Shown here in pieces: positions 2,126-20,095 of a stretch of DNA of 20,663 nt. This DNA is from Polyangiales bacterium (GTDB taxonomy: Bacteria > Myxococcota_A > Polyangia > Polyangiales > Polyangiaceae): NCBI GenBank assembly GCA_038231275.1, contig JBBRLQ010000059.1, positions 1 through 20,663 on the forward strand, given 5' to 3'. Within the stretch, counting starts at the first letter, position 1; every line of letters starts with the position of its first letter. Position numbers and translations under genes: made by a program. A model generated the notes under the pieces. That model saw nothing but the letters and a program-made list of their open reading frames with translations, did not search any database and was not told where the DNA came from.

Positions 2126-2335
2126 TTAGGACTGCGCCGGGAAGCTCGCTGTAGCCGCACGCATCTCGGTCATGTCATGCACGCAAGCGTCTCGAGCGGG
2201 CGCGTCTGAGCAAACGCCCGCGCCGAATGCGTGGGCGCAGGAATGGCCGGCCTTGAGGATGCACCGCACGAGCGCGCCGTCGGCTAGGCGCCGGAAGGAC
2301 ACACCGCACGGTGGGTCGGCGTCGGCGAAGTTCAC
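2126..2335 (-). CDS. Small Cys/His-rich hypothetical protein
   Basis: 69 aa ORF directly downstream of and co-oriented with the HTH gene; C..(x14)..CILKAGHSCAH resembles a metal-binding knuckle. Confidence 0.35.
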   Translation of the reverse strand: MNFADADPPCGVSFRRLADGALVRCILKAGHSCAHAFGAGVCSDAPARDACVHDMTEMRAATASFPAQS

Positions 2336-2366
2336 GAAATAGCCAAAGGAGTTTGTGAGGTCACTA

Positions 2367-3026
2367 CTACGACGAACGGCGCGTACGCGCGAAATCAGGC
2401 AGCAAGGCCATCAGATCGGCGAAGTGGCGCTCACCGGTCGGCGACGGCTCGCGAGCCGAAGACGCGGGGTGGGTGACGACGCTGCGCGTGATGGCTTCGT
2501 TGCGCTTTCGTTGCTCCTCCTCCCACGCCCGCTGCTCTCTGTCGTGCTGCGCCTGCGCGTGGAGCGCGGCGTCGGCCTGCTCTTGTTGCCATTGGTCCAC
2601 GTCTTGGCCCGCGTAGACCTCGGCGTCCACGACGCCTTCTGACGCGGCCGCCCGCTTCGGGCGCGCGACGGGCGGAGGGCGCTTGTCCTGGTCGAGAAAC
2701 TGCGCGTGGAGCGTGCGCACGACCTCAACGGGCTGGGCGTGTCGGGGATCTTGACCCAGTGCGATCACCACTTCCTGCCAAGTTTTGCCTTGGGCGAAGA
2801 GCGCGAACGCCTTGGCGACGACCGGTCCGGGGGCGACGCCGATGATGCGTCCCTTCGCTTGCGCCATCTCTTCGACTTCCTTGCGCGGAAAGTGAGCGAC
2901 TCCTCGCTCGTCGCACACGAACGGCAAATCCCCCGCCGCTTTCATCCTCCGCACTTTGCTCCGATCGATTCCAAGAAGGCGCTCGACGCCTTTGCTCTTA
3001 AGCCAGAAGGTCTTTGCAAACGACAT
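2367..3026 (-). CDS. Excisionase/MerR-like helix-turn-helix DNA-binding protein
   Basis: N-terminal WLKSKGVERLLGIDRSKVRRMKAAGDLPFVCDERGVAHFPRKEVEEM fits the Xis/HTH_17 pattern; possible second HTH (AFALFAQGKTWQEVVIALG); GGAG upstream of ATG; divergent from the main operon. Confidence 0.7.
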   Translation of the reverse strand: MSFAKTFWLKSKGVERLLGIDRSKVRRMKAAGDLPFVCDERGVAHFPRKEVEEMAQAKGRIIGVAPGPVVAKAFALFAQGKTWQEVVIALGQDPRHAQPVEVVRTLHAQFLDQDKRPPPVARPKRAAASEGVVDAEVYAGQDVDQWQQEQADAALHAQAQHDREQRAWEEEQRKRNEAITRSVVTHPASSAREPSPTGERHFADLMALLPDFARTRRSS

Positions 3027-3150
3027 GTGACTCCGACGGTAAGGAGCGCCCCGCGGTCTAGGACCGACGCGCGTCGCATCAAGTGTTGCTGCTCCTCACC
3101 TAACGCCTGTCGGCCCCTCGCCATGACAGTTGCGTACGATCGGCCGGCCG

Positions 3151-3219
3151 GAAAAGCGGTCGCGGCTCCCTCGAGAATTGCCGAGCCGTTCTTCACGAGG
3201 CGGTCGAAAAGCGGTCGAA
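3151..3219. promoter_or_regulatory. Direct repeats in divergent intergenic region (candidate operator)
   Basis: GAAAAGCGGTCG at 3151-3162 and 3206-3217; GCGGTCGAA at 3200-3208 and 3211-3219. Confidence 0.3.
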
Positions 3220-3346
3220 GGGCGTGCCTCAATCGGCGGGACATGGATTGCGCAGCGCGTTCCGCACGTCCATTACAGGAAGACAACGGAAGCGCGCCGC
3301 ACCGAGCGCGCGCTAGCCCGCCCATCACCCACCAGGAGGCGCTGAC

Positions 3347-3880
3347 ATGGCGTTTACGATGACGAACGTCTCGCACGCACGCGAGATGCTGGAACAGGCT
3401 CACAACAAGGTCGAACGTGCCCAGCTCACCATGGCGAAGATCCGCGAGAAGGCGGAGAGCGCGATCGCGACGGGCATTCAGATCGCCGAGGTGAGCGGCA
3501 CCTCGTTCGCATTCGGGTACGCGAACGGTCGCTGGGGCGAAAACGGCGAGCTGGCGTTCGGCGGCGTCCCTGTGGACCTTGGCGCGGCGGTCGTCCTGCA
3601 TGGCGTCGCCTTCCTTGGCGGCCTCGGCAAGTACGCCGAGCACGGGCACAATCTTGGAACGGGCGCGCTCGCCGCGTGCGGCTACCGCACGGGCGCGCAG
3701 ATTGGAGCCGCCGCCGCGAGCAAGCAGCACGCGCGGGCCCCAGGGCAGTTCGGCGGACAGGCGCCGCCGTGGCTCTTCGCCAACCCGGCGCAGCCGGTGT
3801 TCCCGCACGCGGCCCCGGCGGCGCCGGCGGCCCCGCAGCAACCCTTTGTTCCTCAGAATTTCGCGCCGCCGCAACGCTGA
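3347..3880 (+). CDS. Hypothetical membrane-associated protein, first gene of the putative virion operon
   Basis: AGGAGG RBS; N-terminal coiled coil, Gly-rich hydrophobic helices (VPVDLGAAVVLHGVAFLGGLG), P/A/Q-rich tail. Confidence 0.75.
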   Translation: MAFTMTNVSHAREMLEQAHNKVERAQLTMAKIREKAESAIATGIQIAEVSGTSFAFGYANGRWGENGELAFGGVPVDLGAAVVLHGVAFLGGLGKYAEHGHNLGTGALAACGYRTGAQIGAAAASKQHARAPGQFGGQAPPWLFANPAQPVFPHAAPAAPAAPQQPFVPQNFAPPQR

Positions 3881-3915
3881 CGTGAACGCCCCCCAACCAA
3901 GAAGGACGGACCACC

Positions 3916-4536
3916 ATGGACGGACGACAGATGATCGTGGGCGCGGAGCCTGACTACGACAAGTTGATGGTGGGAGGCGAGCCCTCGCCCCATCCCCACC
4001 AGCCCTACGGGCCTCCTCCCCACCCGTACGGGCCGCCGCCGCAGGCTTACTACCCGCCGCCGCAGCATCACGGGCACCATCCGCAGCACCACCCGCACGC
4101 GCATTACGCGCCTCCGCCTCCGCCGCACTACGCGCCCGCGCATGCGCCCGGCCCTCCGCCTCCGCCTCGGCACATCGTGAGCGAGCCCCTGACGAAGTCG
4201 CGCGACTTTCCTATCGGTTTCTCCGCGTTCGGGATTCCGCCGGGGCCACCGATCGAAATCGAGGTGAAGCCGCAGGTGCTCTTCAAGGGCAAGCGGCTCG
4301 CCGTGGCGAACTCCATCTGCAAGGACTTCGTGATCGTCGACATCAAAGTAGGGACGGCCGCGCAGCTCGCAGCAACCGGAGAGATGAGCGCCGAAGCGTT
4401 CAGCGCGCTCGCGGTCGACACCAAGATGGAGTTCGACACGGCGGCGCCAGGGACGACGATCACGATTCGCGTGCGCAACATCTCGGCCGCGCCCTCGAAC
4501 TTTCTCGCGGTGCTCTACGGCGCCGTCATGACCTGA
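3916..4536 (+). CDS. Candidate single jelly-roll capsid-like protein with Pro/His-rich N-terminal arm
   Basis: AAGGA RBS; IVGAEP/MVGGEP leader, P/H/Y low-complexity arm, then ~110 aa with about eight alternating-hydrophobic beta segments. ORF is secure, the fold is inference. Confidence 0.55.
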   Translation: MDGRQMIVGAEPDYDKLMVGGEPSPHPHQPYGPPPHPYGPPPQAYYPPPQHHGHHPQHHPHAHYAPPPPPHYAPAHAPGPPPPPRHIVSEPLTKSRDFPIGFSAFGIPPGPPIEIEVKPQVLFKGKRLAVANSICKDFVIVDIKVGTAAQLAATGEMSAEAFSALAVDTKMEFDTAAPGTTITIRVRNISAAPSNFLAVLYGAVMT

Positions 4537-4551
4537 AGGAGCCCGCTCCTC

Positions 4552-4953
4552 GTGTACTCGCCGCGCTTTTGCTTGCGATCGTTCGAGACCGCCGCCCGGG
4601 CGGAGCGCGAGAACGTGCTGATGCTCCTCTTCGAGGCGCTCATCGCTACCAACGTCGCGTACTTGCGCGCGCGTCCGCAGACGCCGGGACTCTACGCGAG
4701 CGGCATTCGCTACGTCGAAGAGCCTCCCGGCGAGGAAGACTGGCAAGACATCCCCGAGACGCTCGCCCGCGGAACCGGCGATTGCGAGGACCTTGCGTGC
4801 TGGCGCATCGCCGAGCTCCGCGTGCGCGCCGGAGAGCATGCGCATCCCTTTCTGAAGTGCGCCGCCAGAGACGACGGCGTCCTCTATCACGTCGCCGTTC
4901 GGCGCCTCGACGGCAGTCTCGAAGATCCTTCGCGTGTGCTCGGAATGCACTGA
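4552..4953 (+). CDS. Transglutaminase-like cysteine protease (Cys-His-Asp)
   Basis: AAGGAG RBS, GTG start; EDWQDIPETLARGTGDCEDLA (C78), YHVAV (H113), EDPS (D125) follow the GDCED...H...D order of the transglutaminase-like superfamily. Confidence 0.8.
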   Translation: MYSPRFCLRSFETAARAERENVLMLLFEALIATNVAYLRARPQTPGLYASGIRYVEEPPGEEDWQDIPETLARGTGDCEDLACWRIAELRVRAGEHAHPFLKCAARDDGVLYHVAVRRLDGSLEDPSRVLGMH

Positions 4954-4968
4954 ACCAGGAGAATACCG

Positions 4969-6906
4969 ATGCCCTTTGTGCTGCTTCTCATGGGGGCGGT
5001 GACGTTGGCTCTCGTCGCCTCGAACGGGTCGGCGAAGACGCCGAAGCCCGCCCGCTCTCCGTACAACCTCGATCCCGATCTCAACCCGCTGCTTCGCGCG
5101 CAGATCGAAGCGGCCCTCCACGGTGAGAATGATCCGTCGCATCTCGAAGCCTTCGCGAGCGGGCTCGAGAGCCGTTATCCCTACGCCGCGGGGTACCTGC
5201 GCACGAAGGCCGCCGTCCTTCGTCGCATGGGGACGGGAGCGCCTGCGCCCGCGGCCCTTCCTCCGGCTTCCGTCCCGATGGGTATCCCTCACCCGTCGTC
5301 GCCCGCGGCGGCGCTGCCCGTCGACGGGCTCGACGCGAACCTTCCCGACAACGTCCGCTTCAACGTCGTGGAGCTGCTCACGAGCGGGAGCGATCCGGCC
5401 GTGATCGAGACGTTCGCCGCGCAGCTTGGCAGCTTCCCGCTTGCCCAAGCCGCGCTCCGCATGCGTGCCGCGTTTCTTCGCAGCCTCACGCCGCAACAAC
5501 CCGGGCGGCCAGCCTCGATGGGACTCCCGAGCGTGCCCTCCCCTGCCCCTGCGCCTGCCCCCGCGCCTGGGCCCGCGCCTTCGCTGCGCATCCCCGGCCT
5601 CGATCCGAACATGCCGCCGGAGCTTGCGATGCAAGTGGCGCAAGCGCTCATGACGGAAAACGATCCCAGCAGGCTGCGGGAGTTCGGAAACGCGCTGCAA
5701 GCGTCGTTTCCGTCCGCGGCCACGCTGCTGCTTGCGAAGGCGAACGTGATGCCGGCGCCGCGGGCGCAGCCGAGTCCGGAGCCTGCGCCCAGCGCCCCTC
5801 TGCCTCCCTCCTTGCCCGTTCCGTCCTTCCCCGTGCCTTCGTTCCCCCTCCCCTCGGGACCCGGCCTGCTCGACGCCGGCATGACGCCCGAGGATCAAGC
5901 GCGCATCGTGACGGCCCTCAGCAGCGAGACCGACCCCGACAAGCTCCGTCAACTCGCCCACGCCGTCGCCGCTCGCTACCCGAAAGCCGCACTCCTTCTC
6001 ACCACCAAGGCGGACGCGATCGCGACCCTCCTTCTTGGCCCTCGGCCGCCCGCGATTCCAGCTCCGGCGCCGGCCCCCGCAATCCCCGCAAGCCCGGCGT
6101 TCCCGGTGCCCTTCTCTCCGCCGCTTCCCTCCTCGCTCCCGCCGCCGGCCTCCGGGAAGCGCACGTACAAGGTGCAGAGCGGGGACTTCCCGATCAAGAT
6201 CGCAAAGAAATACGGGCAGCCCGAAAGCGCGTGGAAGGAGCTCGTCGCCGCGAACCCGAACAAGCGGCGGGCGGCCGACGGAAACTTCAAGAGCCTCCTG
6301 CCGGGCGAAGAGCTCGTCATCCCTTCTTCGTGGCCCGATCGCGAGCTCGTCTTGGCCCCGGCCAAGGCGCCGAACCCTCCACCGACTTCGCCCGCGCCGA
6401 CTCCGTCGGCGGCTCCTGCCGGAGCTCTCGTTCCGCCGGGCGCCGCGGCTCTCGACCCAGGCATGCCCGCCAACGTCGCGCAGGCGGTGCTGACGGCACT
6501 CGCGACCGAAAGCGATCCAGCCACGCTTCGAGGCTTCGCCGCCTCCATCATGGCGACGTATCCGATCGCAGCAGGCGTTCTCCTCGCCAAAGCCAATGCC
6601 GTCGGCATCCTGGTGGTGGCGGCGCCTGGCGCCGCGTCGAAGCCCGCAGCGCCGCCGCGCGGCGCGCCGACGAGCGGCGGATCCACCTACCGCGTCGTGG
6701 CGGGGGACTCGCCGAGCCGCATCGCCAAGCGGCTCACCGGCACGGAGTCCCGATGGCCCGAGCTCGTCGCCGCCAACCCGCAAAAACCCAAAGCGCCCAA
6801 CGGCAACTTCAAAAGTCTGCAACCCGGCGACGTCCTCCAGCTCCCGCCGTCCTGGAGCACCGCCACCACCCCTACCAACGGAGCGCCCACCGCGGCGCGC
6901 GCGTGA
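4969..6906 (+). CDS. Membrane-anchored protein with five ~50-aa helical repeats and two LysM domains
   Basis: AGGAG RBS; hydrophobic N-terminus; five LDxx(M/L)...ExDP..L..FA......YP.AA..L..KA repeats with Pro-rich linkers; LysM-like TYKVQSGD...IAKKY...ELVAANP...LLPGEELVIP and TYRVVAGDS..RIAKR...ELVAANP...LQPGDVLQLP. Confidence 0.85.
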   Translation: MPFVLLLMGAVTLALVASNGSAKTPKPARSPYNLDPDLNPLLRAQIEAALHGENDPSHLEAFASGLESRYPYAAGYLRTKAAVLRRMGTGAPAPAALPPASVPMGIPHPSSPAAALPVDGLDANLPDNVRFNVVELLTSGSDPAVIETFAAQLGSFPLAQAALRMRAAFLRSLTPQQPGRPASMGLPSVPSPAPAPAPAPGPAPSLRIPGLDPNMPPELAMQVAQALMTENDPSRLREFGNALQASFPSAATLLLAKANVMPAPRAQPSPEPAPSAPLPPSLPVPSFPVPSFPLPSGPGLLDAGMTPEDQARIVTALSSETDPDKLRQLAHAVAARYPKAALLLTTKADAIATLLLGPRPPAIPAPAPAPAIPASPAFPVPFSPPLPSSLPPPASGKRTYKVQSGDFPIKIAKKYGQPESAWKELVAANPNKRRAADGNFKSLLPGEELVIPSSWPDRELVLAPAKAPNPPPTSPAPTPSAAPAGALVPPGAAALDPGMPANVAQAVLTALATESDPATLRGFAASIMATYPIAAGVLLAKANAVGILVVAAPGAASKPAAPPRGAPTSGGSTYRVVAGDSPSRIAKRLTGTESRWPELVAANPQKPKAPNGNFKSLQPGDVLQLPPSWSTATTPTNGAPTAARA

Positions 6907-6911
6907 CCCTC

Positions 6912-8426
6912 ATGACCGCGATTCGACAGCACGATGTGACCCTCACGGAGGGGACGTTCAGCGTCGTCCTCACCCGTCAAAAGCGCGTCCTTGCCACCAT
7001 CACGGCGCCGCTATCGCCCCTCGGCCCGCTTCATCTCGTGTTTGAGATGGACCGCGGCCTTCACCCGGACATCCTCCGCCGCGAGGCGCTCGCGAAGCGC
7101 GGACTGCACCCGTCGCAGATCATGGTCGGCGGCATCTTCGGCGACATCGGAAACTTCGTCAGCAAGGCCGCCGACACCACGTTCAACACCGCTTCGAAGG
7201 CCGTCACCACCGTGGCGCGCCCCGCTCTGCACCTCACGCGCGATGCGGTCTCGCACGCGATGAATGGCATCTCGCAGATCACGCCCTTTCTCCCGGCGCA
7301 TCTCAGAAACGACATCAGCAACGCCGCGCGCGTCGTCGCGCGCGCACGCCTCGGCGACCTGACCGCCAAGCAGTTCATTCACACGATCGGCCAAGCCGCC
7401 AAATCCGGCGTCGGCGCCGCGCGCCACATCGGAGACGCCCTGCTCGACGGCTCGCGGCTCGTCGCGAGAGTCGTCGATGTGCCCATGCACGTGCTGAAAA
7501 ACGTGCCCGGGGTCGGCAACGTCGTCGCGACGATTTCGCCGTTCCAGAAGTTTGACCACATGATCGCCGCGGTCCAGCGCGGCGATCTCCACGCGCTGAA
7601 AGAGATGGTCGCGAGCGATCTGCACACCTTCCAAGGCGTAGCGTCGCTCATTCCCGGCATTGGCACCGGCATCAGCGCGGGGCTCGAAGCAGGGCTCGCC
7701 GCGCTCGACGGCGGAAGTCCTCTCGAGATCGCCATCCACGCGGCCTACGGAGCGATCCCCATCCCCATCGGCATCCGCTCGGTGACCGACGCGATCGTCG
7801 GCGCAGTCATGGAGCTGGCGAAGTCCGGCAACGTGACCGACGCCGCGCTTGCGGCGGCGCGCAGCCGCGCGCCCGCCGGCTTTCCGCGCGACGTGTTTGA
7901 CACCCTCGCCCGCATTGTCGCCAAGAAGGTGTCGATTCAAAACGCCGGCGCCGCGCTCGCGAGCCACTACGTCGATCGCTTTGCAGGACAGGCGGGCTCG
8001 CATCTTCTCGGCGAAGCGCAGCGTCTGGTCGGCAGTGGCGCGCGACTTTCCGGTCCGCTCGCTCCGAAGCTCGGCGAGATGGCGGGCCGGGCGCTCGGCG
8101 TCGGAGGAGAGTGGTCGGGCGACGACATGCGCGCGTGGGGCCTTCCAGGTCGGCACGTCACCCTCGGCGGGGAGGAGCCCGTCGCGTACGCGGTCGGCGG
8201 CGAACAGCCCACGGCGTACGTGGTCGGAGGTGAGGAGCCCTTCGCGCTCGCCGTGGGCGGCGACTACGAAGTCGGCGGCGAAGAGCCGCCGGCCTACGCG
8301 GTGGGCGGGGAGGAGCACTTCGAGGTGGGCGCCGCGCCCGAGCTCGGTGGGATTTCGCCGGAGCTTCTGGCGATGCTCCCCCATCCGTCCGAGTGGCTCT
8401 CGGGCCGCGGCCACCACGGAGGTTGA
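6912..8426 (+). CDS. Hypothetical 504-aa Ala/Gly-rich helical protein (candidate internal virion / DNA delivery protein) with C-terminal VGGEEP repeats
   Basis: ATG 6912 lies 5 nt after the previous stop; MVGG followed by amphipathic IFGDIGNFVSKAADTTFNTASKAV; LIPGIGTGISAGL hydrophobic segment; acidic repeats at C-terminus. Confidence 0.75.
   Translation: MTAIRQHDVTLTEGTFSVVLTRQKRVLATITAPLSPLGPLHLVFEMDRGLHPDILRREALAKRGLHPSQIMVGGIFGDIGNFVSKAADTTFNTASKAVTTVARPALHLTRDAVSHAMNGISQITPFLPAHLRNDISNAARVVARARLGDLTAKQFIHTIGQAAKSGVGAARHIGDALLDGSRLVARVVDVPMHVLKNVPGVGNVVATISPFQKFDHMIAAVQRGDLHALKEMVASDLHTFQGVASLIPGIGTGISAGLEAGLAALDGGSPLEIAIHAAYGAIPIPIGIRSVTDAIVGAVMELAKSGNVTDAALAAARSRAPAGFPRDVFDTLARIVAKKVSIQNAGAALASHYVDRFAGQAGSHLLGEAQRLVGSGARLSGPLAPKLGEMAGRALGVGGEWSGDDMRAWGLPGRHVTLGGEEPVAYAVGGEQPTAYVVGGEEPFALAVGGDYEVGGEEPPAYAVGGEEHFEVGAAPELGGISPELLAMLPHPSEWLSGRGHHGG
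8100..8351 (+). repeat. Coding repeat array of nine (V/L)G(G/A) units, partly 30-nt periodic
   Basis: VGGE...LGGEEPVAYA VGGEQPTAYV VGGEEPFALA VGGDYE VGGEEPPAYA VGGEEHFE VGAAPE LGG. Confidence 0.85.
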
Positions 8427-8429
8427 CCC

Positions 8430-9128
8430 GTGCACGCCTCGCAGACCCATCGCCAGCAGGACATCAACTTCGGCGATCGGACGAAGTTGACCGGCTCGAC
8501 GACGAAGACGCTCGCGTGGATGAACCTCGACGAGTCGGCGTCGTTCACCGTGTACGCCGACGCCCGCTTCACCGCCGGGCCGCCGGCGGCGCTGCCGCAC
8601 CTCGCGGCCATCGTCACGATCGAATGGGGCGCGGGCGCGGCGACGGTCTCCGCGGAGTACCGCATCGTGGGGCGGCTCCGCGTCCCGCTCGCCGCAAGCG
8701 CGATCCGCGTGGAAGGCCACCTCGAGGACGTCCGAGGATTGCCCGTCCCCGGCGACGTCGTCGCCGAGGTGGCCGCCTTCATCGCCCGCGGCACGGACGG
8801 CGAGACGATACCCAACGCGCAGACGCGGGTGCAGTCCGGCGCGCAGGGCATCCTCAGCACGCGATCCGAGCGCGTCCTCGCCGTCGAGGGGTTCAACGCA
8901 GGGGCAGGCTCCCTCTGGGTGATGCTCTTCGAGGGGCCAGCGTTGCCAGCCGCGGGCGCCGCGCCGCGCATGGCGGCGCCCGCCCCTGCCGGAGCGCCCT
9001 TCCGCATGCGACCGGCGAGCGCGCGAGAATTTCTAGGAGGCGTCGTCTGGGCGGCCAGCGCCGCGCCGCTCACCTTCACGCCGGTGCCGGGAGCCGCCCT
9101 CTACCTCGAAGCGGAGATGGTGCCATGA
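8430..9128 (+). CDS. Beta-rich two-domain hypothetical protein (candidate second capsid / vertex / spike protein)
   Basis: GGAGG RBS, GTG start; alternating hydrophobic strands in both halves (SFTVYAD, IVTIEWG, IRVEGHL; VLAVEGFN, LWVMLFE, GVVWAAS, LYLEAEM). Confidence 0.65.
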   Translation: MHASQTHRQQDINFGDRTKLTGSTTKTLAWMNLDESASFTVYADARFTAGPPAALPHLAAIVTIEWGAGAATVSAEYRIVGRLRVPLAASAIRVEGHLEDVRGLPVPGDVVAEVAAFIARGTDGETIPNAQTRVQSGAQGILSTRSERVLAVEGFNAGAGSLWVMLFEGPALPAAGAAPRMAAPAPAGAPFRMRPASAREFLGGVVWAASAAPLTFTPVPGAALYLEAEMVP

Positions 9129-9889
9129 CCGCGCGGGCGGACGAGATCGCGCGCTACGCGCGCAAGGCGCACGTCGTCGTCGAGGCGTGGAGCTCGCTGT
9201 TTGGGCTGCCGCCCACGATGCGCTCGCTCGTCCGGGTGATGGCTGTCGCCGAGTTTGAGACGCATCTGGGCGACGCGCGCGGATGGACGGGCGAGCACAA
9301 CTGGGGAGCGATCGTGAAGCGGACGCTCTCCGCGCTCGAACGCGCCACGCTCGCCGGACAGGGCATCACCGCCGAGGGAGGCAGCACAGCGCTCGCCGCC
9401 GCGCGCGCCCTCTTGCCCGCGGCGTCCAATGAAGCGCTCCACATCGATCGCTCTCCAGGGCGGGGACACCACTTCGCCTGGTTTTGGGCTTTCCCTTCGG
9501 ATGCCGAAGCCGCTCGGAAGTTTCTCCAGGTGCTCGTCGTGCAGAGGCCCGGCGTGCGCGCCGTGCTCGAGCACGACGACGTCACGGACGTGGCGCGCGC
9601 CATGTACGACGCGCACTATTACGAGGGCGACAGCGTGAACGATCCGGAGGCGAACGTGCGCGCCTACGCGCGACGCCTCCGTGAGCTCGAGCCGCGCATC
9701 GCGGATGCGATCCTCGCCCCGCTGCCCCCTACCCCGCCCGCGCCGGGCAACCCGACCGCGCCGGGCAACCAAGCCGTCGACACGCCGCCGAGGTTCGCGC
9801 CGCGTTCCGTCACCGCCGGCGTCCATGTCTTCCTCGGCGCCATCGTTCTGCTCTTCGGATCGATCCTCGCGCGCGGCGGCCATCGATGA
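9125..9889 (+). CDS. Lysozyme-fold / glucosaminidase (GH73-like) peptidoglycan hydrolase with C-terminal membrane anchor
   Basis: ATGA overlap; MAVAEFETHLG...HNWGAI...FWAFPSDAEAARKF...AMYDAHYYEG resembles the A..E..G / N.FGI / F..F.S / GY motif order of GH73-like enzymes; Pro linker, then VFLGAIVLLFGSILA. Confidence 0.6.
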   Translation: MTARADEIARYARKAHVVVEAWSSLFGLPPTMRSLVRVMAVAEFETHLGDARGWTGEHNWGAIVKRTLSALERATLAGQGITAEGGSTALAAARALLPAASNEALHIDRSPGRGHHFAWFWAFPSDAEAARKFLQVLVVQRPGVRAVLEHDDVTDVARAMYDAHYYEGDSVNDPEANVRAYARRLRELEPRIADAILAPLPPTPPAPGNPTAPGNQAVDTPPRFAPRSVTAGVHVFLGAIVLLFGSILARGGHR

Positions 9890-10653
9890 GCGGCCTTTTC
9901 CCCACCGTGGTGGTCGCCAGCGATTTGCGATCGCTCAAAGATCGCATCAACCCGCAGGTCTCCCTCGTCGACGCGATCGTGCAGCGGACGGCGTCTCTCG
10001 ATGCCGCGACGCGCGGCGAGTGGCAGGCCTTCGCCGCGCAATGGCGTGAGTTTTTTGGCAGCGATGGCTTTCTGACGTCGTCGCAGATGGACGCGGGCCA
10101 AGCGCTCGAAAGGAAGCTCCGCGATCTGAAGTCGGTCCTCTCCTCGCAATGCCCAGGGGTCCCCTCCCCGGCTCCGAAACGCGACGTCCCGTTTCTTCCC
10201 ACGTGGGTGACGCCAAACCTTGTGCGCGAGCAGAAGACGCGCATCGGGCCGCGCGTCCGAGACGTGGGGCGGAAGGCGGCTCAGGCTCCCGGGCTTGAGG
10301 AGGGCGTCCGCCGCGCGTGGGCAGAGTTCCATCACGCGTGGTCGGCGTTTGAGAGCGAGGCCGAAGAGTGGACCCATGGCGCCGCGCAATGGATGAATGC
10401 CCTCGCCTTCGAGGACGTCCTTCCCGAGTGGGAGGACGCGATCGCGATGGCGAGCGCCGGGTTCGCCGCGCCGGCGCCCGCGCCCGCGGAGACCTGGTTT
10501 CCACCCGCGCGCGGCGTCGCGCCAGGACTGCCGGTGCCTGCCGCGTCGGCGGGAACATCCACATCCGCGGGGAGCGGAGCCGCGGTCCTCGCCATCGGCG
10601 CGGCCGTCCTTGTGGTCGGCGTGGTCCTCCTCAAAGGCAGCCATCCCTCATGA
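9886..10653 (+). CDS. Tail-anchored membrane protein with two tandem W..F...W..F helical domains
   Basis: ATGA overlap; internal duplication; C-terminal AAVLAIGAAVLVVGVVLLK. Confidence 0.75.
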   Translation: MSGLFPTVVVASDLRSLKDRINPQVSLVDAIVQRTASLDAATRGEWQAFAAQWREFFGSDGFLTSSQMDAGQALERKLRDLKSVLSSQCPGVPSPAPKRDVPFLPTWVTPNLVREQKTRIGPRVRDVGRKAAQAPGLEEGVRRAWAEFHHAWSAFESEAEEWTHGAAQWMNALAFEDVLPEWEDAIAMASAGFAAPAPAPAETWFPPARGVAPGLPVPAASAGTSTSAGSGAAVLAIGAAVLVVGVVLLKGSHPS

Positions 10654-11057
10654 GCGGCCTCCTCCCCACGGTGGTCACGCCCGACGACGTGCGCGCGAGC
10701 AAGGCCCGCCTCGATGCGTTTGCCCGCGCCTTCGATCGCAGCGTCACCGCGTGCCCGCGGCTTGCTCCGTCTATCCACCAGAGCTGGTCCGATTTCTATC
10801 GCGGATGGCGGCGCTTTGCCGATGCGGATCCTTCGTGGTTTCACGCCGCGGCCGAGTTCGACGCCGCCCAGCAGTACGAGGAGCACTTGATCGCCTGGCA
10901 GGCGCAGCTCGGCCCTCTCTGTCCGATCGCCGGTCCTTCTCTCACAAGGCCCCCGGGTGCGTCGTCGACAGGAACGGTCGAAACCACCATCAAGACGGTG
11001 GCCATCGCGGCAGCGGTCGTGGCCGTCGCGCTCGCCGTACGGGAGATCACGCGATGA
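10650..11057 (+). CDS. Tail-anchored membrane protein, single-domain paralogue of the upstream gene
   Basis: ATGA overlap; MSGLLPTVVTPDDVR vs MSGLFPTVVVASDLR; WSDFYRGWRRF; C-terminal VAIAAAVVAVALAVR. Confidence 0.75.
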   Translation: MSGLLPTVVTPDDVRASKARLDAFARAFDRSVTACPRLAPSIHQSWSDFYRGWRRFADADPSWFHAAAEFDAAQQYEEHLIAWQAQLGPLCPIAGPSLTRPPGASSTGTVETTIKTVAIAAAVVAVALAVREITR

Positions 11058-11989
11058 ACGAGTCTCACGCAAGCACCTCTCGGATCGCCAAGCGGTCGCC
11101 AAGCGATCGCCACGGCTTCGACGCCCAGGACGATGGGCCATTCGTCCCCGACGACCTCGTCCAGTGGGTGCACGAGCAGATCGCACGCGGCTGCTCGCTC
11201 CTCACGCTTCGGCAGCGCGCCGACGAGGGCGAGACGCTTGTCTGCAACGCGCCCCTGCCCGGCGACGGCGCGCAGAGCGTCGCGGCCTCGATTCACCTGC
11301 GCGCCGCGGCAGAGGGCCGCTTTCTCCGCGGTCCGACGCTCTTCGTCCTCTACGCCTTCAAGGACATCGCGCGGGAGCACTGCGACCGCAAATCGTTCCG
11401 CGTCGAGGGCGAAACGTTCTCGCGAAGTGGGGAGACCGAGCCTCCGACGGTCAGCGGGATCAACGCGATGCTGATGCGCCACGCCGAAGGCGCCACCAAG
11501 ATCGCGCTCGGCCACACCTCGCACATCATCGAGCAGTACAAGGTGCTCCTCCAGCAGCGGGACCGGCGCATCACCGAGCTCGAGACGTCGCTCCGCGAGG
11601 CGTCCGCCATGCGCGAATCGCTCGTCATGCTCGAGCACGAGCGCGCCCTCGCGCTCCACCGGGCGAAGGACGACGAAAAGCGCAGCGACTTCATGCGCGA
11701 CAAGCTCGATCTCCTCATCCCCGTCGTCGCCGGGAAAATGCTCGGGGCAGGCGGCTCCCCCGTGCCGCCGATCGTGAACGACGAGATGCTGCGCCAGCTT
11801 CTCGGTTCGCTGTCGCCCGACCAGCTCACGAAGCTCCAGAGCATTCTCGGTCCGGACCAGCAGGCCGTCGTGGGCGATCTCTACATGAGGTACGCGCAGC
11901 GCTCGCGCGATCCCAACGTGGCGGCCGCGGCGAAGCGCGAAGCGGCGCAGTCGCGCGGCGCCCCCGACGAAGCACGAGGGAATGACTGA
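11054..11989 (+). CDS. Hypothetical protein with alpha/beta N-domain and coiled coil
   Basis: ATGA overlap at 11054, GGGAG upstream; GC3-rich coding pattern; coiled coil LLQQRDRRITELETSLRE. Confidence 0.7.
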   Translation: MNESHASTSRIAKRSPSDRHGFDAQDDGPFVPDDLVQWVHEQIARGCSLLTLRQRADEGETLVCNAPLPGDGAQSVAASIHLRAAAEGRFLRGPTLFVLYAFKDIAREHCDRKSFRVEGETFSRSGETEPPTVSGINAMLMRHAEGATKIALGHTSHIIEQYKVLLQQRDRRITELETSLREASAMRESLVMLEHERALALHRAKDDEKRSDFMRDKLDLLIPVVAGKMLGAGGSPVPPIVNDEMLRQLLGSLSPDQLTKLQSILGPDQQAVVGDLYMRYAQRSRDPNVAAAAKREAAQSRGAPDEARGND

Positions 11990-12033
11990 AGGGACGTCCA
12001 CGCAGCCGCACGCGAAAGGTTCAGGGAGCAGGC

Positions 12034-12231
12034 ATGAACGAAGCAAAAACAATCTTGAGCAAAAGAGGCGACCAGGCGGTCAAAGCCGGGCGTCTGTTCC
12101 TGGACGCGATCTGCGGCGACGACCGCGATCACGTCGAAAGCGAAACACCTTACGCGACCCACGCCGTAACCCCGGAACGGTCGCTCCTCATCATCGACGC
12201 CGAGCTCGAGGACGAAGGAAGGAAACCATGA
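12034..12231 (+). CDS. Small acidic hypothetical protein
   Basis: GGGAG RBS; stop overlaps next start (ATGA). Confidence 0.55.
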   Translation: MNEAKTILSKRGDQAVKAGRLFLDAICGDDRDHVESETPYATHAVTPERSLLIIDAELEDEGRKP

Positions 12232-12593: not shown

Positions 12594-12628
12594 CGCGGAT
12601 TGACGCCCCTGTAAGGGCGACGTCCGCG
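12594..12628 (+). terminator. Imperfect stem-loop right after the last gene of the operon
   Basis: CGCGGA..CGCCC-CTGTAA-GGGCG..TCCGCG; no strong U-tract. Confidence 0.3.
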
Positions 12629-12818: not shown

Positions 12819-14654
12819 ATGAACATCGCGCGCAAAAGCGCTGAGAACGCGAAGAGAAGCGCCCATGATCGTGACGCGCGACGCGCGCATCGCCGCCTCG
12901 CGCGCGTGCGGATCGCGTCGCTGCGCGCGAAGATGAAGGCGGCCATCGCCGCGCGCAACGCGAAGATGAAGGAGATCGTCGCCACGTGCCGCGAGCAGCG
13001 GCGAGCGGTGCGCGTGCAGATCAAGACGATGTGGAACGACGGCCGGCGCGCGATCCGTGAACGCGCCGAGGCGGAGCGTCAACGCGTCCGCGACGAATGC
13101 GACGTGGAAAAGGACCGCGCGAAGCAGGCGTGCGACTCCGCGATCGATCTCGTGCGCGCCGAGCTAGCCGCGGAGAAGAAGCGCGCCGCCGAGGAGCGTC
13201 GCATCGGGCGTGAAGAGCGGACGCGCCATCAGGCGCTCACGCGCTCGCACGTCACGGGCGCGGCGCACACGTTCGTCGTGCGCGCGGCCATGCTCGGGGC
13301 CCTCGGCCCGCTCTTCGAGCGCGTGCGACCCGCACCGGGCCAGTCCCGTCCCGAAGCGATCCTGCACTATGCGGAGACGCACCCCGAGCAGGTGCATGCG
13401 GTTCTGCACCCCGGCGCAGACCGCGCCATCGCGGAGACGAAGGCGGAGATGGCCGCCGCGGTGCGGGCGATGGGCGCGCCGACGACGCGGGATCTCGAGC
13501 GCGCGCTCCGATCACGCAAACGCAGCGCGACGACCGAGGTGTCGAGACCGAAAGCGTCCGAGCCGAAGGCGACACGCGCGGCGGGCCGCGTGGAGCCCCC
13601 CGCCGCGGCATCGTGGACGGGTGACGGCTACGACGACCGGATCCTCTGCTCGCGTTGTGGCTGCAAGGGCGGGCAACATCGCGGCTCCGATGGCAAGTGC
13701 CCGAAGACGGCCGCATGGGGACGCCCTGCGCCCGATCCGATGTCGAACCATGCGCTCGACAAAACGGCGCTCGACGCCGCCCTTGCGGCGTACTGGTCCG
13801 CCAACGCCACGTTCTACCGGCCTGTGACGGCCCGCGGGAAGGACGATGCGGCGGTGCCAGCCGAGCGTCCGCCGAACGCGTACGAGCAGAAGAAGGCCGC
13901 ACGCGTCGACCGCATGCGCGCGCGCGCGGACAAGAAGAAGGCCGAAGCAGCGGGGGCGTTCATGCGCGCGGACAGCATCGCGTCAGTGATCCCGGCGGGT
14001 CAGCCGATCCTTGTCGGACACCACTCCGAGAAACGCCACAGGCGCGATATCGCGCGCATCGACCAAGGTTTCCGCAAGTCGTTCGAGCTGACGCGTGAAG
14101 CGGAGCAGCTTGCGCGTCGCGCCGACTTCGCCGAGCGAAACGATGCGATCTCGAGCGACGATCCGAACGCTGTCGACAAGCTTCTCGCAAAGCTCGCAGA
14201 GCTGAACACGAAGCGCGCCCGCTGGAAGCTCGTCAACGAAGCCGTCCGTGCCGCGAAGAACGAGGGCGACCTTCGCGCGTCGCTCGCGCGCCTCGGCGTT
14301 AACGAAAACCTCGCTTGCGATCTCCTCACGCCCGACTTCGCCGGCCGCATGGGCATCGCCGACTATCAGTTCAAGAATGCTGGCTCCGAAGCGCGTCGTC
14401 TTGAGCAGCGCATCAAGCAGCTCGAGACCGCGGCGAAGGCGCCGGAGAAGCCGGCCGAGACGATCGGGCACGCGCGCATCTACGAGGCCGACAGCCGCGT
14501 GCGCGTGGAGTTCCCGACGATACCCCCGGAGGGCGTGCGCAAGAAGTTGAAGGGCGCCGGCTTCCATTGGTCGCCGACCGTGGGCGCATGGCAGCGGCAC
14601 GCGAGTAGCGGCGCTTGGTACCACGCGCGCGAAATCGCCGCGGCGATGACGTGA
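12819..14654 (+). CDS. Fusion: basic coiled-coil domain + Cys/His knuckle + DUF3560-family domain
   Basis: C-terminal IPAGQPILVGHHSEKRHRRDIARI, ISSDDPNAVDKL, RVRVEFPTIP...LKGAGFHWSP..GAWQR are DUF3560 hallmarks; central CSRCGCKGGQHRGSDGKCP. Confidence 0.8.
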   Translation: MNIARKSAENAKRSAHDRDARRAHRRLARVRIASLRAKMKAAIAARNAKMKEIVATCREQRRAVRVQIKTMWNDGRRAIRERAEAERQRVRDECDVEKDRAKQACDSAIDLVRAELAAEKKRAAEERRIGREERTRHQALTRSHVTGAAHTFVVRAAMLGALGPLFERVRPAPGQSRPEAILHYAETHPEQVHAVLHPGADRAIAETKAEMAAAVRAMGAPTTRDLERALRSRKRSATTEVSRPKASEPKATRAAGRVEPPAAASWTGDGYDDRILCSRCGCKGGQHRGSDGKCPKTAAWGRPAPDPMSNHALDKTALDAALAAYWSANATFYRPVTARGKDDAAVPAERPPNAYEQKKAARVDRMRARADKKKAEAAGAFMRADSIASVIPAGQPILVGHHSEKRHRRDIARIDQGFRKSFELTREAEQLARRADFAERNDAISSDDPNAVDKLLAKLAELNTKRARWKLVNEAVRAAKNEGDLRASLARLGVNENLACDLLTPDFAGRMGIADYQFKNAGSEARRLEQRIKQLETAAKAPEKPAETIGHARIYEADSRVRVEFPTIPPEGVRKKLKGAGFHWSPTVGAWQRHASSGAWYHAREIAAAMT

Positions 14655-14666
14655 AGGAGAAGGAAC

Positions 14667-15407
14667 GTGCTCACCCGAAAACAAGCGAAGGAGCAACGGC
14701 GAGGGATCCAGCGCGACATCAACCGCGACTTGAAGATGAAGGAGCGCGCGAAGCTGCTCGCGACCCGGCAGAAGCTCCGCGATGCGCACGCCCACAAAAA
14801 GGAGCGCATGAAGGAGCTGGTCGAGCGATGCCGCTCCGAAAGGCTCACCATCCGCGCGCGGCTCAAGGAGATGCGCGCGCGTATCCTGCAGGAGCTGCAC
14901 GACACGGCGCGGCTAGAGCGCCAAGCCGCGCGCGACGCGTGCCTTCTTCGCAAGGGCGACGGAAAGACGACGTGCGCGACGGCGATCGCGTGCGCGCGCC
15001 GCGACTACCTTGCCGAGAAAACCTACCAGCAAGACATGCGACGCATCGAGCGCGCTAACCGCGAGCGCCATCGTGCCGCGCGCGTCCATAGGTCGCGCGC
15101 CGAGCGTCGCAGCGAGTCGGACGATGAAGTGCGCCAGAACATCAGCGCCGAGCTCGTCGCGCTCTTCGAGCGCGTGAAGCGGTCCATCAAGGCGATGCCC
15201 CGCATGTCGCGGACGGAGGTGTTCCTGAAGTACGCGGAGGAGAACCCGCACGAAGTGTTCGCGGTGATCGAGGACAAGACCGAGCGGCTGATTCGCGACC
15301 TCGAGCGAAAACACGCAGAGGCCGTGAGACAAGCGCGCCCTCGCAAGGCGTCAGCCTCGCGCTCTCGTTACACCGCGTCGGAGCTCTCCTCGGCGGTCCC
15401 CTTCTGA
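14667..15407 (+). CDS. Highly basic coiled-coil protein, paralogue of the N-terminal domain of the upstream gene
   Basis: AAGGAG RBS, GTG start; shares MKE.V..CR, ER...RD.C, LFERV, SR.E..L.YAE..P..V.AV motifs. Confidence 0.8.
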   Translation: MLTRKQAKEQRRGIQRDINRDLKMKERAKLLATRQKLRDAHAHKKERMKELVERCRSERLTIRARLKEMRARILQELHDTARLERQAARDACLLRKGDGKTTCATAIACARRDYLAEKTYQQDMRRIERANRERHRAARVHRSRAERRSESDDEVRQNISAELVALFERVKRSIKAMPRMSRTEVFLKYAEENPHEVFAVIEDKTERLIRDLERKHAEAVRQARPRKASASRSRYTASELSSAVPF

Positions 15408-18129: not shown

Positions 18130-18780
18130 ATGTTTGTTATGGCGTTTGTTTCGATGAAAGGCGGGAGCGGGAAGACAACGCTCTGCACCAATGTCGCTGC
18201 CGCGGTTCATGGCACCGGCCAGCGCGTCCTTATTCTCGACGCGGACCCGCAGGGAAGCGCCCTGGCATTTTGCGCCCGAGGCGCCGAGATGAATCACGAC
18301 ACTCCCTCTTGCTTCGCCGTTGACGGCAGCGCGCTTCGCCGCGACGTCGATCGGCTCCGCCCATCGTGGGATCTGATCTGTATCGACTCGCCGGCCCGGC
18401 TGGGCAAGGAGACGCGAAACGCTATCCTCGCCGCGGACATGACGGTGCTGCCGGTCACCCCGGGTCCTTACGACTTGTGGGCAGCCAGGGAGACAGCCGA
18501 AATCATCGAAGAGGCACGCGCGTCGAAAGATGTGATCGCGAGGTCGGTGCTCAACCGAACGTCGCGCACAAAGCTCGCGCAAAAAACAGAGCGTGCACTC
18601 TCCGAGCTTGGAATCGATTCGCTCGACACCACGGTCGGATCGAGAACGGTGTTCGGCGAGGCGGCTCTTGTTGGCCGCGGCGTCGTTAGCCACGCACCAA
18701 CGAGCGATGCCGCTCGCGACGTGCGGCGGCTCGTGTCAGCCATCTTTGCCGCCCACGAGGGCGTGGAGCGAGTCGCCTGA
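18130..18780 (+). CDS. parA: ParA-family (type Ib / ParF-like) partition ATPase
   Basis: Deviant Walker A KGGSGKTT, A' LILDADPQGS, Walker B ICIDSPA; short, no N-terminal HTH. Confidence 0.93.
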   Translation: MFVMAFVSMKGGSGKTTLCTNVAAAVHGTGQRVLILDADPQGSALAFCARGAEMNHDTPSCFAVDGSALRRDVDRLRPSWDLICIDSPARLGKETRNAILAADMTVLPVTPGPYDLWAARETAEIIEEARASKDVIARSVLNRTSRTKLAQKTERALSELGIDSLDTTVGSRTVFGEAALVGRGVVSHAPTSDAARDVRRLVSAIFAAHEGVERVA

Positions 18781-19091
18781 TGAAAGAGCCTCTGTTTTCT
18801 GTTCCGCGCGTAATGCCGAAGCCTGTCGATGAAGCCGCCGCTTCGGCGTTCCTTGCAGACGAGCGGCCCGCGAAGCACGTGGTGGACGCGAGGGAAGGGG
18901 AACTGCGAGCGTCACCGAAGAAGTCGTCGAAGCCGGCGCCCGAACCGGCAATCGCGTCGACGGCATCTTGCCACCTCACGGTTGCTGTCCCTCCCGGCGC
19001 CCTGCGGAAGCTCCGCCAGCGCGCGCTAGACGAAAACACAACGGTGCGCGAGCTCGTCGTCGGGACGCTCGTGCGCGAAGGACTGATCTAG
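18780..19091 (+). CDS. Ribbon-helix-helix partition partner (ParG-like)
   Basis: TGATG coupling to parA; disordered N-terminus and C-terminal HLTVAVPPGALRKLRQRALDENTTVRELVVGTL (beta-alpha-alpha). Confidence 0.75.
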   Translation: MKEPLFSVPRVMPKPVDEAAASAFLADERPAKHVVDAREGELRASPKKSSKPAPEPAIASTASCHLTVAVPPGALRKLRQRALDENTTVRELVVGTLVREGLI

Positions 19092-19212
19092 GCACGTGAA
19101 GCTCGCGAGGCTCTCGGAGCGAGCCCTCCGGAGTCGGGATCGAGCCGCTCGTGGTCACGGTCGGATCGCGCGGCGCGTTCGGTGAAGCGATGCACGGCGG
19201 AGCGCACGCGGT

Positions 19213-19337
19213 CTGGAAACATTCACGGTTCATCGGGCGCCGGCCGGCACGCTCAAGAAGCTCCGTCAGCGCGCCTCGACGAGAACACCACGGTGCGGCA
19301 TCTCGTCCTCGCGCTGCTCACCAGCGCCGGGCTATAG
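19213..19337 (+). pseudogene. Frameshifted second copy of the RHH domain
   Basis: FTVHRAPAGTLKKLRQRA / -1 nt / LDENTTVRHLVLALLTSAGL*, clearly homologous to 18975-19091; in-frame stop upstream at 19183 and no ATG/GTG start. Confidence 0.75.
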
Positions 19338-19472
19338 CCCGATGGGCACGCCGTGGCGCACAGGCCAAGCCCGATGAAGAAGCCTGGTCCCAAGGGATCC
19401 ATGCAGATCGGCGTAGCCAAGTGGCAACTGCCCGCGGGCGGGCGTATATATTCACTAGTACGAGTTTCCCAA

Positions 19473-19646
19473 ATGACCGCGAAGCCCAACTACTCCGAGC
19501 CGACCAGCGACCCGCGCCTCACCGAGGATGCGACGCCGGCCAAAGTGCGCGAGGCGAAGGACGCGGCGCGCCGTGCGCGCATCGCGCTAGCGGTCGAGCA
19601 CTCGCTCTCGGACAATGCCCTTCTGCTCGCTCGTCTCTCGAAGTGA
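19473..19646 (+). CDS. Putative antitoxin of the Doc-family pair
   Basis: 57 aa, ends SDNALLLARLSK like Doc-associated antitoxin tails; GTGA overlap with doc; TATATT -10-like box near 19447. Confidence 0.6.
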   Translation: MTAKPNYSEPTSDPRLTEDATPAKVREAKDAARRARIALAVEHSLSDNALLLARLSK

Positions 19647-20095
19647 AGATCGACGACGTCGTCTTTCTCGACGAGAGCGACGTGGTTGACATGCACGCGC
19701 GTGCTCTCGCAGCCCATGGCGGGCTCGATGGCGTCCGCGAACCGGCAACGCTCGCCGCGACGACGGGCGCTCCTGAGACGGCGGCGCGCAACGGGTACAT
19801 GACAACGATCGCCGAAGTCGCCGCGACCTACGCCTTCGGCTTCGCGCGCACGCAAGTTTTCGTCGACGGGAACAAGCGCACGGCGGTCCTCACGATGACC
19901 GGCTTTCTCGGAGCAAACGGCTACCGTCTCGTGCTCGATCCCGACAAGTGGGAGGCGATCATCCTCGGCGTATCGACGAAGCAGATCGATCGCGACCAGC
20001 TTGCCGTCGTGGTCGCCGAGGAAATGGGTCGCGCTGCGGGCGCGAAGGATTCGGATGGAAGGCCCGTTGCGGTGTGGGGCTCGATCGAGCCATAA
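19643..20095 (+). CDS. doc: Doc/Fic-family (death-on-curing) toxin with variant motif QVFVDGNKR
   Basis: FLDESDVVDMH....HGGLDGVRE..., AATYAFGFARTQVFVDGNKRTA....FLGANGY. Confidence 0.85.
   Translation: MKIDDVVFLDESDVVDMHARALAAHGGLDGVREPATLAATTGAPETAARNGYMTTIAEVAATYAFGFARTQVFVDGNKRTAVLTMTGFLGANGYRLVLDPDKWEAIILGVSTKQIDRDQLAVVVAEEMGRAAGAKDSDGRPVAVWGSIEP

Follow-up and report, generated by a model that had tools for sequence, protein, structure and literature searches.

A contig of 20,663 bp from a Polyangiales bacterium (GenBank assembly GCA_038231275.1, contig JBBRLQ010000059.1; the whole stretch is called the window below) was analysed around one open reading frame (ORF), the target, at positions 3916–4536 of the forward strand. 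The contig is 68% GC and belongs to a myxobacterial metagenome-assembled genome of 9.3 Mb (164 contigs, 94% complete). The target is the second gene of one tightly packed operon of 10 genes on a mobile element, and its 206-aa product ends in a domain modelled as a jelly roll and predicted to associate with its own copies. A role in the shell of a tailless virus is tentatively proposed, and is weighed against three other explanations in the last section.

The target gene and its jelly-roll domain

The target is a genuine, conserved gene. It starts with ATG 35 nt past the gene 3347–3880, with a AAGAAGGA site just upstream, and has the codon-position pattern of a coding sequence on a contig of this composition (GC at third codon positions, GC3, 0.83; GC1 > GC2). 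Its product is divided as follows; pLDDT, predicted local distance difference test.

3916..3978, forward strand: N-terminal motif (MIVG ... DYDxLM ... GxEP), residues 1–21; from the alignment of 52 homologues; model pLDDT ~50.
3979..4188, forward strand: variable P/H/Y-rich disordered tether, residues 22–91; from pLDDT (47–63) and from linker length and composition in homologues.
4189..4536 (stop codon included), forward strand: jelly-roll domain, predicted to self-associate, residues 92–206; from the AlphaFold2 model.

At least 138 homologues were found at E ≤ 0.01 in a word-indexed search; the few that are named are proteins of Polyangiaceae, Polyangiales or soil metagenomes, all of them "hypothetical", and library scans of the target gave no Pfam, PHROG or NCBIfam match. 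The family alignment holds 52 of the homologues, and linker statistics were taken from 50. At the N-terminus MIVG, frequently doubled, is followed by DYDxLM and GAEP (hhVG motif in 42/52 aligned sequences, DYDxL in 50/52). The linker is unalignable, 40–154 aa long (median 84.5), and consists of 19% P and 15% H; the C-terminal domain has 111–130 residues across the family, and all 24 invariant columns lie inside residues 116–204 of the target. With the family alignment as input, AlphaFold2 modelled residues 91–206 at pLDDT 82–98 per 10-residue block and the remainder at ~50–60. The initial annotation had described a P/H/Y-rich arm, disordered, in a protein without signal peptide. The arm is there (29 P, 14 H and 6 Y among the 75 aa of residues 21–95), its disorder agrees with the low pLDDT and with its variability among homologues, and a Kyte–Doolittle scan found no hydrophobic segment and hence no signal peptide, so that the protein would be cytoplasmic unless carried out. 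The fold itself is known; the protein family and its architecture of anchor motif, P/H tether and minimal jelly roll are undescribed in the libraries and literature searched.

The model supports a jelly-roll fold for the C-terminal domain. Modelled strands lie at residues 95–107 (FPIGFS), 113–117 (IEIEV), 122–130 (FKGKRLAV), 138–145 (FVIVDIKV), 151–153 (near AQL), 182–188 (TITIRVRN) and 194–205 (FLAVLYGAV). Eight strand segments had been read from the sequence by the initial annotation; all eight occur in it and seven are modelled as strands of at least 3 residues, but MEFDTA forms only a 2-residue bridge at 175–176. The proposed topology held, the domain aligning over nearly its full length with eight-stranded jelly rolls: sequential structural alignments to the barrels of SPV1, STIV A223 and P23-77 VP17 take in 103–112 of ~115 residues at a root-mean-square deviation (rmsd) of 2.6–3.7.

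Among single structures the closest match is the 178-residue capsid chain of SPV1. Match scores for other viral proteins are 8.2 (STIV vertex protein A223), 8.0 (HCIV-1), 8.0 (HHIV-2), 7.7 (nanovirus coat, FBNSV), 7.2 (P23-77 VP17) and 6.6 (PR772 124-residue chain 6q5u_O); those for cellular proteins are 8.3 (PHM), 7.7 (TMED1 GOLD), about 7.1–7.4 (nucleoplasmin) and about 6 (discoidin and carbohydrate-binding modules, CBMs). Matches to the Ena proteins score below the capsid matches. The comparison with P23-77-type and penton proteins that the initial annotation had suggested gives matches at near full length, but a cellular protein, PHM, scores at the same level. Foldseek of the target against PDB gave nothing at E ≤ 1e-3; the weak rows are jelly-roll-type sandwiches (phage tail-fibre tip, furin P domain, SPV1, plant-virus coats). 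BFVD returned one row at 9.4e-4, to the coat protein of a plant virus; it has an rmsd of 31 over 244 columns and was set aside because its alignment passes through the disordered tether. The domain profile run against all PDB sequences returned chance-level rows alone (best, alanine racemase at E 0.024). The nearest ESM Atlas clusters are unnamed proteins mostly recorded from viruses (scores 0.94–0.95), which serves as a lead only.

Self-association of the domain, head-to-tail, is supported by prediction. Three copies of residues 88–206 scored 0.62 (runs 0.71, 0.62 and 0.40) versus 0.09 for the best control, with at least 90% of contacts in agreement and partner pLDDT of at least 81. In calibration, 20 of the 30 solved homo-pairs passed the mark of the tool, as did 1 of the 23 single chains; these counts hold only roughly here, as two copies and the tool's own alignments were used for calibration and three copies with a custom alignment for the target. 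The predicted interface is asymmetric: one face is made of residues 96–103, 117–133, 164–170 and 195–204, the other of 136, 139, 150–172 and 189, taking in the highly conserved loop-helix 150–163. A head-to-tail contact of this modelled kind is the type expected of rings or lattices.

The domain reaches well beyond the close family. A domain-only profile matched 3009 cluster representatives (50% clustering) at E ≤ 1e-3; 1205 of them passed E ≤ 1e-10. In a sample of 30 of these wider relatives no Pfam domain and no fusion to a glycoside hydrolase or other catalytic domain was seen, and four had weak matches only, to PHROGs of unknown function. Some members are the bare domain (121–127 aa); others carry 2–4 tandem copies on P/A-rich linkers. 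Three metagenome proteins (P0164, P0166, P0170) have 3–4 tandem jelly-roll copies joined by P/A-rich linkers of ~40–60 residues, behind an N-terminal hydrophobic segment that is followed by Arg and preceded by no positive charge; by the positive-inside rule their domains would face the cytoplasm.

A second, divergent copy of the gene pair lies in the same genome on contig C78 (locus L011, 327–755 and 759–1604). There a relative of 3347–3880 is followed, 4 nt on, by a gene whose 281-aa product has 36% identity to the target jelly roll over its C-terminal 105 residues and an N-terminal part that differs from that of the target and looks helical. Genes for PG_binding-like and anchored proteins follow downstream; the 5.4-kb contig showed no relative of the peptidase.

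The operon and its conservation

The target is the second gene of the operon, as initially annotated: a gap of 320 bp (3027–3346) separates the first gene from a divergent HTH_17 gene, and the target follows the first gene. The genes from 6903 to 11989 overlap or abut, all their junctions being 4-nt overlaps except that the GTG at 8430 starts 3 nt past the stop at 8426; the row is therefore taken as a single tightly packed operon. The features around the target are listed below.

2367..3026, reverse strand: divergent HTH_17/excisionase-like regulator; Pfam HTH_17 E 2.6e-5 (under the curated cut-off), phrog_66 excisionase/regulator E 6e-5.
3027..3346, no strand: 320-bp intergenic region, presumed promoter/operator, with the divergent regulator on one side and the operon on the other; GGAGG 7 nt before ATG 3347.
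3347..3880, forward strand: first operon gene, 177 aa; glycine-rich hydrophobic segment (~69–94), P/Q-rich tail; no family match.
4552..4953, forward strand: transglutaminase-like, Cys-peptidase-like protein, 133 aa; conserved motif and weak similarity.
4969..6906, forward strand: protein with peptidoglycan-binding LysM domain(s), 645 aa; Pfam LysM 2.8e-9, phrog_380 endolysin 8.1e-22 over two stretches; hydrophobic segment 1–19; internal repeats.
6903..8426, forward strand: conserved glycine-rich protein, 507 aa; relatives in 8/8 genome loci; C-terminal tail with four hhVGGE/D repeats.
8430..9128, forward strand: tandem jelly-roll/beta-sandwich protein, 232 aa; second capsid or vertex candidate.
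9125..9889, forward strand: 254-aa protein with C-terminal anchor at 231–249; no match of its own.
9886..11057, forward strand: two paralogues, 9886–10653 and 10650–11057, each C-terminally anchored; cross-match in tblastn; starts overlap previous stops by 4 nt.
11054..11989, forward strand: 311-aa protein, last conserved module gene; relatives in 7/8 genome loci, L018 and L019; no family match; helical/coiled-coil-like by eye.

Five of the 10 operon proteins carry a hydrophobic anchor. A sigma-70 consensus scan over 2300–12900 gave no promoter-like site.

Gene order is constant in all 27 loci compared, namely 8/8 species-representative genome loci and 19/19 metagenome loci of at least 7 kb: 3347, target, 4552, 4969, 6903, 8430, a variable slot, one or two C-anchored paralogues and 11054, with DUF3560/primase-like genes downstream. 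Relatives of the HTH_17-like regulator stand upstream of the module in L001, L002, L003, L006, L055 and L077. A relative of 3347–3880 is found directly upstream of the jelly-roll gene in 6/8 genome loci, 14/19 of the long metagenome loci, L011 and L100. The most conserved products of the module are the jelly-roll domain (55–62% identity) and its peptidase neighbour (54–61%) in the seven genome loci besides L001; identity of 8430–9128 in the same loci is 33–44%.

The peptidase-like gene adjoins the jelly-roll gene in 8/8 genome loci and 19/19 long metagenome loci, and lies within 620 bp of it in L017, L018 and L019, where the pairing is kept among distant relatives (35% identity or a domain-profile match only). 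Across 12 sequences of the 4552–4953 family, G76-D77-C78, D80, H113, E124 and P126-S127 are invariant and D125 is present in at least 90%. Similarity to enzymes of known class is weak: the LapG-type protease 4u65 is matched at GDCEDyA with E 0.53, and Transglut_core is matched by one of the 12 members at 9.3e-4 and by the L100 homologue at 6.8e-4, both under the 23-bit cut-off. The libraries and literature searched describe neither this type of element nor a strict pairing of a jelly-roll gene and a small transglutaminase-like enzyme.

GC3 is highest (0.89) in the gene of the tandem jelly-roll protein, 8430–9128. The matches of this protein to other tandem jelly rolls include the STIV major capsid protein (5e-4) and PRD1 P3 (3.4e-3), at low Foldseek template-modelling (TM) scores of 0.2–0.29; it superposes poorly on double jelly-roll (DJR) capsid proteins, and its best two-domain match is a vertex protein. 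Profiles of 8430–9128 and 9125–9889 against PDB sequences gave nothing relevant. Paralogy of the target domain and 8430–9128 was considered and is undetectable (hhalign probability 0.1).

Two slots differ among relatives: the 4969 slot holds PG_binding_1 proteins in L080, L089 and L100, and the 9125 slot holds SLT in L047 and L100, PG_binding_1 in L048 and peptidase M23 in L080. For 6903–8426 no PDB or Pfam match was found, and the best ESM Atlas score is 0.83, to an unnamed protein. The peptide hhVGGE/D occurs in four copies at 8187–8306, in the tail of this gene, and in two at the target N-terminus (3928–3984). Its use as a general shared docking peptide was rejected, clear copies being present in the tails of only 2/29 relatives (L001 and L020, the ones closest to the window); a script had counted 5/29, three of which fit only the looser pattern it used.

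Mobile-element setting and distribution

The module lies in a mobile-element setting, the remaining features of the window being the following.

12819..15407, forward strand: presumed replication module, a DUF3560/primase-like gene followed by a paralogue of its N-terminal portion; Pfam DUF3560 1.7e-32, phrog_19458 primase 1.3e-22.
18130..20095, forward strand: ParA, Arc-like ORF and Fic/Doc toxin-like gene, maintenance genes; NCBIfam ParA_partition 7.6e-54, DOC_P1 8.7e-11, phrog_2639 Arc-like 6.4e-3.

Relatives of the DUF3560/primase-like gene lie downstream of the module in many loci, often two or three in a row; in the window the N-terminal ~200 residues of the protein are paralogous to the product of the next gene, 14667–15407. 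Among the papers on DUF3560 that a literature search listed, judged by title or the start of the abstract, none dealt with its function. The ParA/Arc-like/Doc set at the right contig end, in which the Fic/Doc-type toxin-like product has 314 aa, looks plasmid-style. At the left end and outside the conserved module, a reverse-strand gene at 712–2160 encodes a 482-aa protein with a spermidine-synthase-like methyltransferase domain (fused MFS/SpdSyn-type match, 48 bits versus a 40-bit cut-off); it may be host or cargo DNA.

Flanks elsewhere hold a tyrosine integrase (L003), Prim-Pol (L006) and HTH_17/MerR regulators. Scans of the window and of flanks detected no genes for terminase, portal, HK97 capsid, tail or FtsK/HerA ATPase, and none for a relaxase, coupling protein, VirB4-type ATPase, pilus or type IV secretion. 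ParA is the sole P-loop protein in the window, and a six-frame Walker A scan gave two matches, both outside the frames of called genes. The window has no exact terminal overlap of at least 12 bases and no tRNA. The jelly-roll family is sporadic, being present in 4 of 401 genomes sampled across the phylum, that of the window included; some copies lie in contigs of 100–143 kb and are therefore integrated there. The family of elements is roughly 20–30 kb in size, integrative or circular, and found in Polyangiaceae-like myxobacteria. A literature search on jelly-roll and double jelly-roll proteins in Myxococcota and on integrated single jelly-roll (SJR) viruses gave no paper on the target family.

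Among viral contigs, IMG/VR was scanned with patterns of several module families. The peptidase family hit one contig, G401, and the tandem, transmembrane-anchored relatives hit one other, G402; scans with P0157 and with the 6903–8426 family gave none that was confirmed. G401 has 29,914 bp and a 97-bp terminal repeat and looks complete. It carries relatives of 3347, the jelly-roll gene, the peptidase, 6903 and, weakly, 8430, together with DUF3310, SLT, PG_binding and DNA-methylase genes. The hallmark families PF05065, PF03354, PF03237 and PF01580, which cover the HK97 capsid, two terminases and FtsK, are without match in both contigs, and G401 gave no portal match either. If G401 is a complete genome, its jelly-roll proteins are its only visible capsid candidates. 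G402 is a terminally repeated viral contig of 86,414 bp, 100% complete by CheckV. One of its ORFs, L104:6922-7335, encodes a bare, distant jelly-roll relative of 137 aa (profile E 1.8e-5); the rest of the module is absent, and a TnpB-like ORF of 653 aa, identified from the sequence by eye, lies near it.

Proposed role and rival explanations

The best reading, offered tentatively, is that the target may be a virion shell protein of a portoglobovirus-like virus that has no packaging ATPase. It would be a cytoplasmic structural protein built of an N-terminal docking motif, a disordered tether and an eight-stranded jelly roll, whose jelly-roll domain would pack head-to-tail with its own copies into the capsomers of a tailless, membrane-containing virus, the DNA being packaged without a dedicated ATPase. 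The other shell or vertex subunit would come from 8430–9128. Products with membrane anchors and those that bind or degrade peptidoglycan would have roles at the inner membrane and in entry or exit, and the tether would be trimmed or cross-linked by the transglutaminase-like Cys peptidase, whose gene is always adjacent. What the analysis shows is the gene, its family and fold class, the predicted self-association, the synteny and the mobile-element setting; virion formation, the shell role, the stoichiometry and the processing are inferred. If a packaging ATPase is lacking, PRD1-type and P23-77-type viruses would be excluded. The initial annotation had named the target a candidate single jelly-roll major capsid protein. 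The predicted homo-oligomer (0.62 versus 0.09) and the mobile element without other recognisable capsid gene agree with that proposal, which stays a candidate role; 8430–9128 is a second candidate in the same operon, and the anchored relatives with 3–4 copies fit a strict lattice protein poorly.

Several observations weigh against a shell role. No relative was found by tblastn with the domain in 50,697 GenBank phage records or 72,556 plasmids (PLSDB), nor with two distant relatives as queries in the phages only; IMG/VR pattern scans with the jelly-roll family gave none confirmed, and the module was met on just one IMG/VR contig (G401), in a collection whose labels are automatic. Partner contacts vary between the three runs (98, 173, 89), which is compatible with closure at three or with a larger ring, and the predicted interface holds no excess of invariant residues (12/24 versus 51/119 domain residues). 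For the relatives with 3–4 copies that were read (P0164, P0166, P0170), a role as tethered binding modules is more fitting than one as lattice subunit. The tandem jelly-roll protein 8430–9128 could be the main shell protein instead.

Portogloboviruses have circular dsDNA of ~20 kb and two jelly-roll shell proteins, with SJR hexamers and pentamers over an inner lipid layer and with subcapsomer and membrane proteins (PMC8459092). Passages of PMC8812541 describe SPV1 and FLiP as being without packaging ATPase, and in passages of PMC8812541 and PMC8459092 the ATPase-less single-jelly-roll dsDNA viruses are so far two archaeal isolates only, near the root of one virus lineage. Portogloboviridae (SPV1 VP4/VP10, PDB 6oj0) are resembled by the element in its size of 20–30 kb, two jelly-roll genes, five anchored products and lack of an ATPase, and in the terminal repeats of G401. 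The differences are several. The target has no sequence similarity to their capsid proteins (profile versus PDB sequences); their host is an archaeal hyperthermophile, whereas the myxobacterial element lies in a bacterium and is known from sequence. The target also has its long P/H-rich tether and conserved N-terminal motif, with the transglutaminase-like peptidase gene always adjacent; the second jelly-roll protein of the element is a two-domain tandem, and ParA, DUF3560, Doc and sometimes an integrase are carried.

A single-barrel and a two-barrel protein in one module recall the small and large capsid proteins of the Helvetiavirae (P23-77 VP16/VP17; SH1, HHIV-2, HCIV-1). The core block of that group, an FtsK/HerA ATPase beside two adjacent capsid genes, was not found, however: there is no such ATPase in the window and no PF01580 in G401 or G402, and the two jelly-roll genes of the element stand three genes apart and have no mutual profile similarity. 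With the PRD1-type penton and vertex proteins (STIV A223; PR772 6q5u_O) the target shares the jelly roll, but its partner superposes poorly on DJR capsid proteins and no ATPase was found. Unlike the cellular jelly rolls (PHM, p24 GOLD, nucleoplasmin cores, CBMs), the target has no copper-site, cargo-receptor or histone-chaperone context, and lies on a sporadic mobile element, with no signal peptide and no enzyme fusion in 30 relatives. Like the LapG-type proteinases, 4552–4953 has GDCEDxA around the catalytic Cys, shared with 4u65, an invariant Cys and His and an acidic pair, E124 (invariant) and D125 (at least 90%); it differs in having just 133 aa, no signal peptide and weak similarity.

An anchor motif, a flexible stalk and a C-terminal jelly-roll head resemble spike and fibre proteins, and the target could instead be a vertex, spike, decoration or receptor-binding virion protein, anchored by its motif, with the tether as stalk and the jelly roll as head, while 8430–9128 builds the shell. 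One of the three runs had about double the contacts (173), as in a closed trimer, relatives bear 2–4 tandem heads on linkers, and 8430–9128 has the top GC3 and low-TM matches to the STIV and PRD1 major capsid proteins. The same protein fails, however, to superpose as a double jelly-roll capsid protein (TM 0.2–0.29), and the target jelly-roll domain is more conserved than 8430–9128. Receptor-binding heads are usually the fastest-varying parts. The top single structural match of the target is moreover the SPV1 capsid chain. A spike or vertex role is regarded as unlikely.

With a role of the target outside any virion, the operon would serve an integrative plasmid-like element as cargo or for transfer and act at the cell envelope, for example in remodelling of the cell wall, surface exclusion, adhesion or vesicle-mediated transfer, and the jelly roll would be an oligomeric lectin-like or scaffold module. 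Such a role is suggested by the many cellular jelly-roll matches (PHM, GOLD, nucleoplasmin, discoidin, CBMs), by an operon rich in peptidoglycan-binding or -cleaving and membrane-anchored products, by ParA, Doc and DUF3560, which are typical of plasmids, by relatives with an N-terminal hydrophobic segment before tandem copies, and by the absence of the family from cultured phages and its near absence from IMG/VR. It is nevertheless thought rather unlikely: the target itself has neither signal peptide nor hydrophobic segment, neither the window nor the scanned loci yielded a relaxase, a coupling protein, a VirB4-type ATPase or a pilus gene, none of the 30 scanned relatives is fused to a catalytic domain, the 72,556 plasmids gave no tblastn match, and a ring- or lattice-type self-association is predicted alongside the SPV1 match. 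The target might also be chiefly a substrate of the adjacent transglutaminase-like enzyme, cross-linked through its tether into a covalent coat or fibre with no capsid, much as jelly-roll subunits are linked by their arms in the endospore appendages of Bacillus. Both genes are adjacent wherever a locus has room for both, the enzyme shows weak Transglut_core and LapG-type similarity and has its Cys, His and Glu invariant, the neighbouring Asp being kept in at least 90%, and the tether is P/H/Q-rich. LapG (4u65) is deposited as a protease, however, not as a cross-linker, and the similarity is weak (E 0.53, Pfam under cut-off); the Ena matches fall below the capsid matches, and a mobile-element setting with sporadic distribution suits a host-benefit coat or fibre poorly. 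A coat or fibre of this kind is considered very improbable.

The shell reading can be extended, with little confidence, to a first set of bacterial counterparts of the portoglobovirus plan: temperate, tailless, membrane-containing and ATPase-less viruses, with a shell of 115-residue single jelly rolls and a tandem vertex protein, in which the shell subunit would be tied to the inner layers by its tether and the tether trimmed or cross-linked by the enzyme. The jelly-roll module, present in thousands of unannotated proteins with tandem forms of 2–4 copies among them, would then record steps from single to multiple jelly-roll capsid proteins. If true, a bacterial group with the ATPase-less SJR plan would extend the lineage to both prokaryotic domains; as myxobacteria are genetically tractable, it would also offer a mesophilic experimental system, and the origin of capsids from cellular jelly rolls would become directly testable. 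Even if the element is not viral, a large unannotated protein family is defined (the 3009 representatives at 50% clustering) and is strictly paired with a small transglutaminase-like enzyme. With its conserved 10-gene module the element represents a type not described before; it is common in metagenomes of peat and soil, and virus-detection pipelines miss it almost wholly, as seen from the one IMG/VR contig. One locus, L005 (contig DATKOH010000051.1), is labelled Gemmatimonadaceae and carries the module with a truncated, inverted second jelly-roll copy at its end (L005:348-1); the label could reflect mis-binning or a wider host range.

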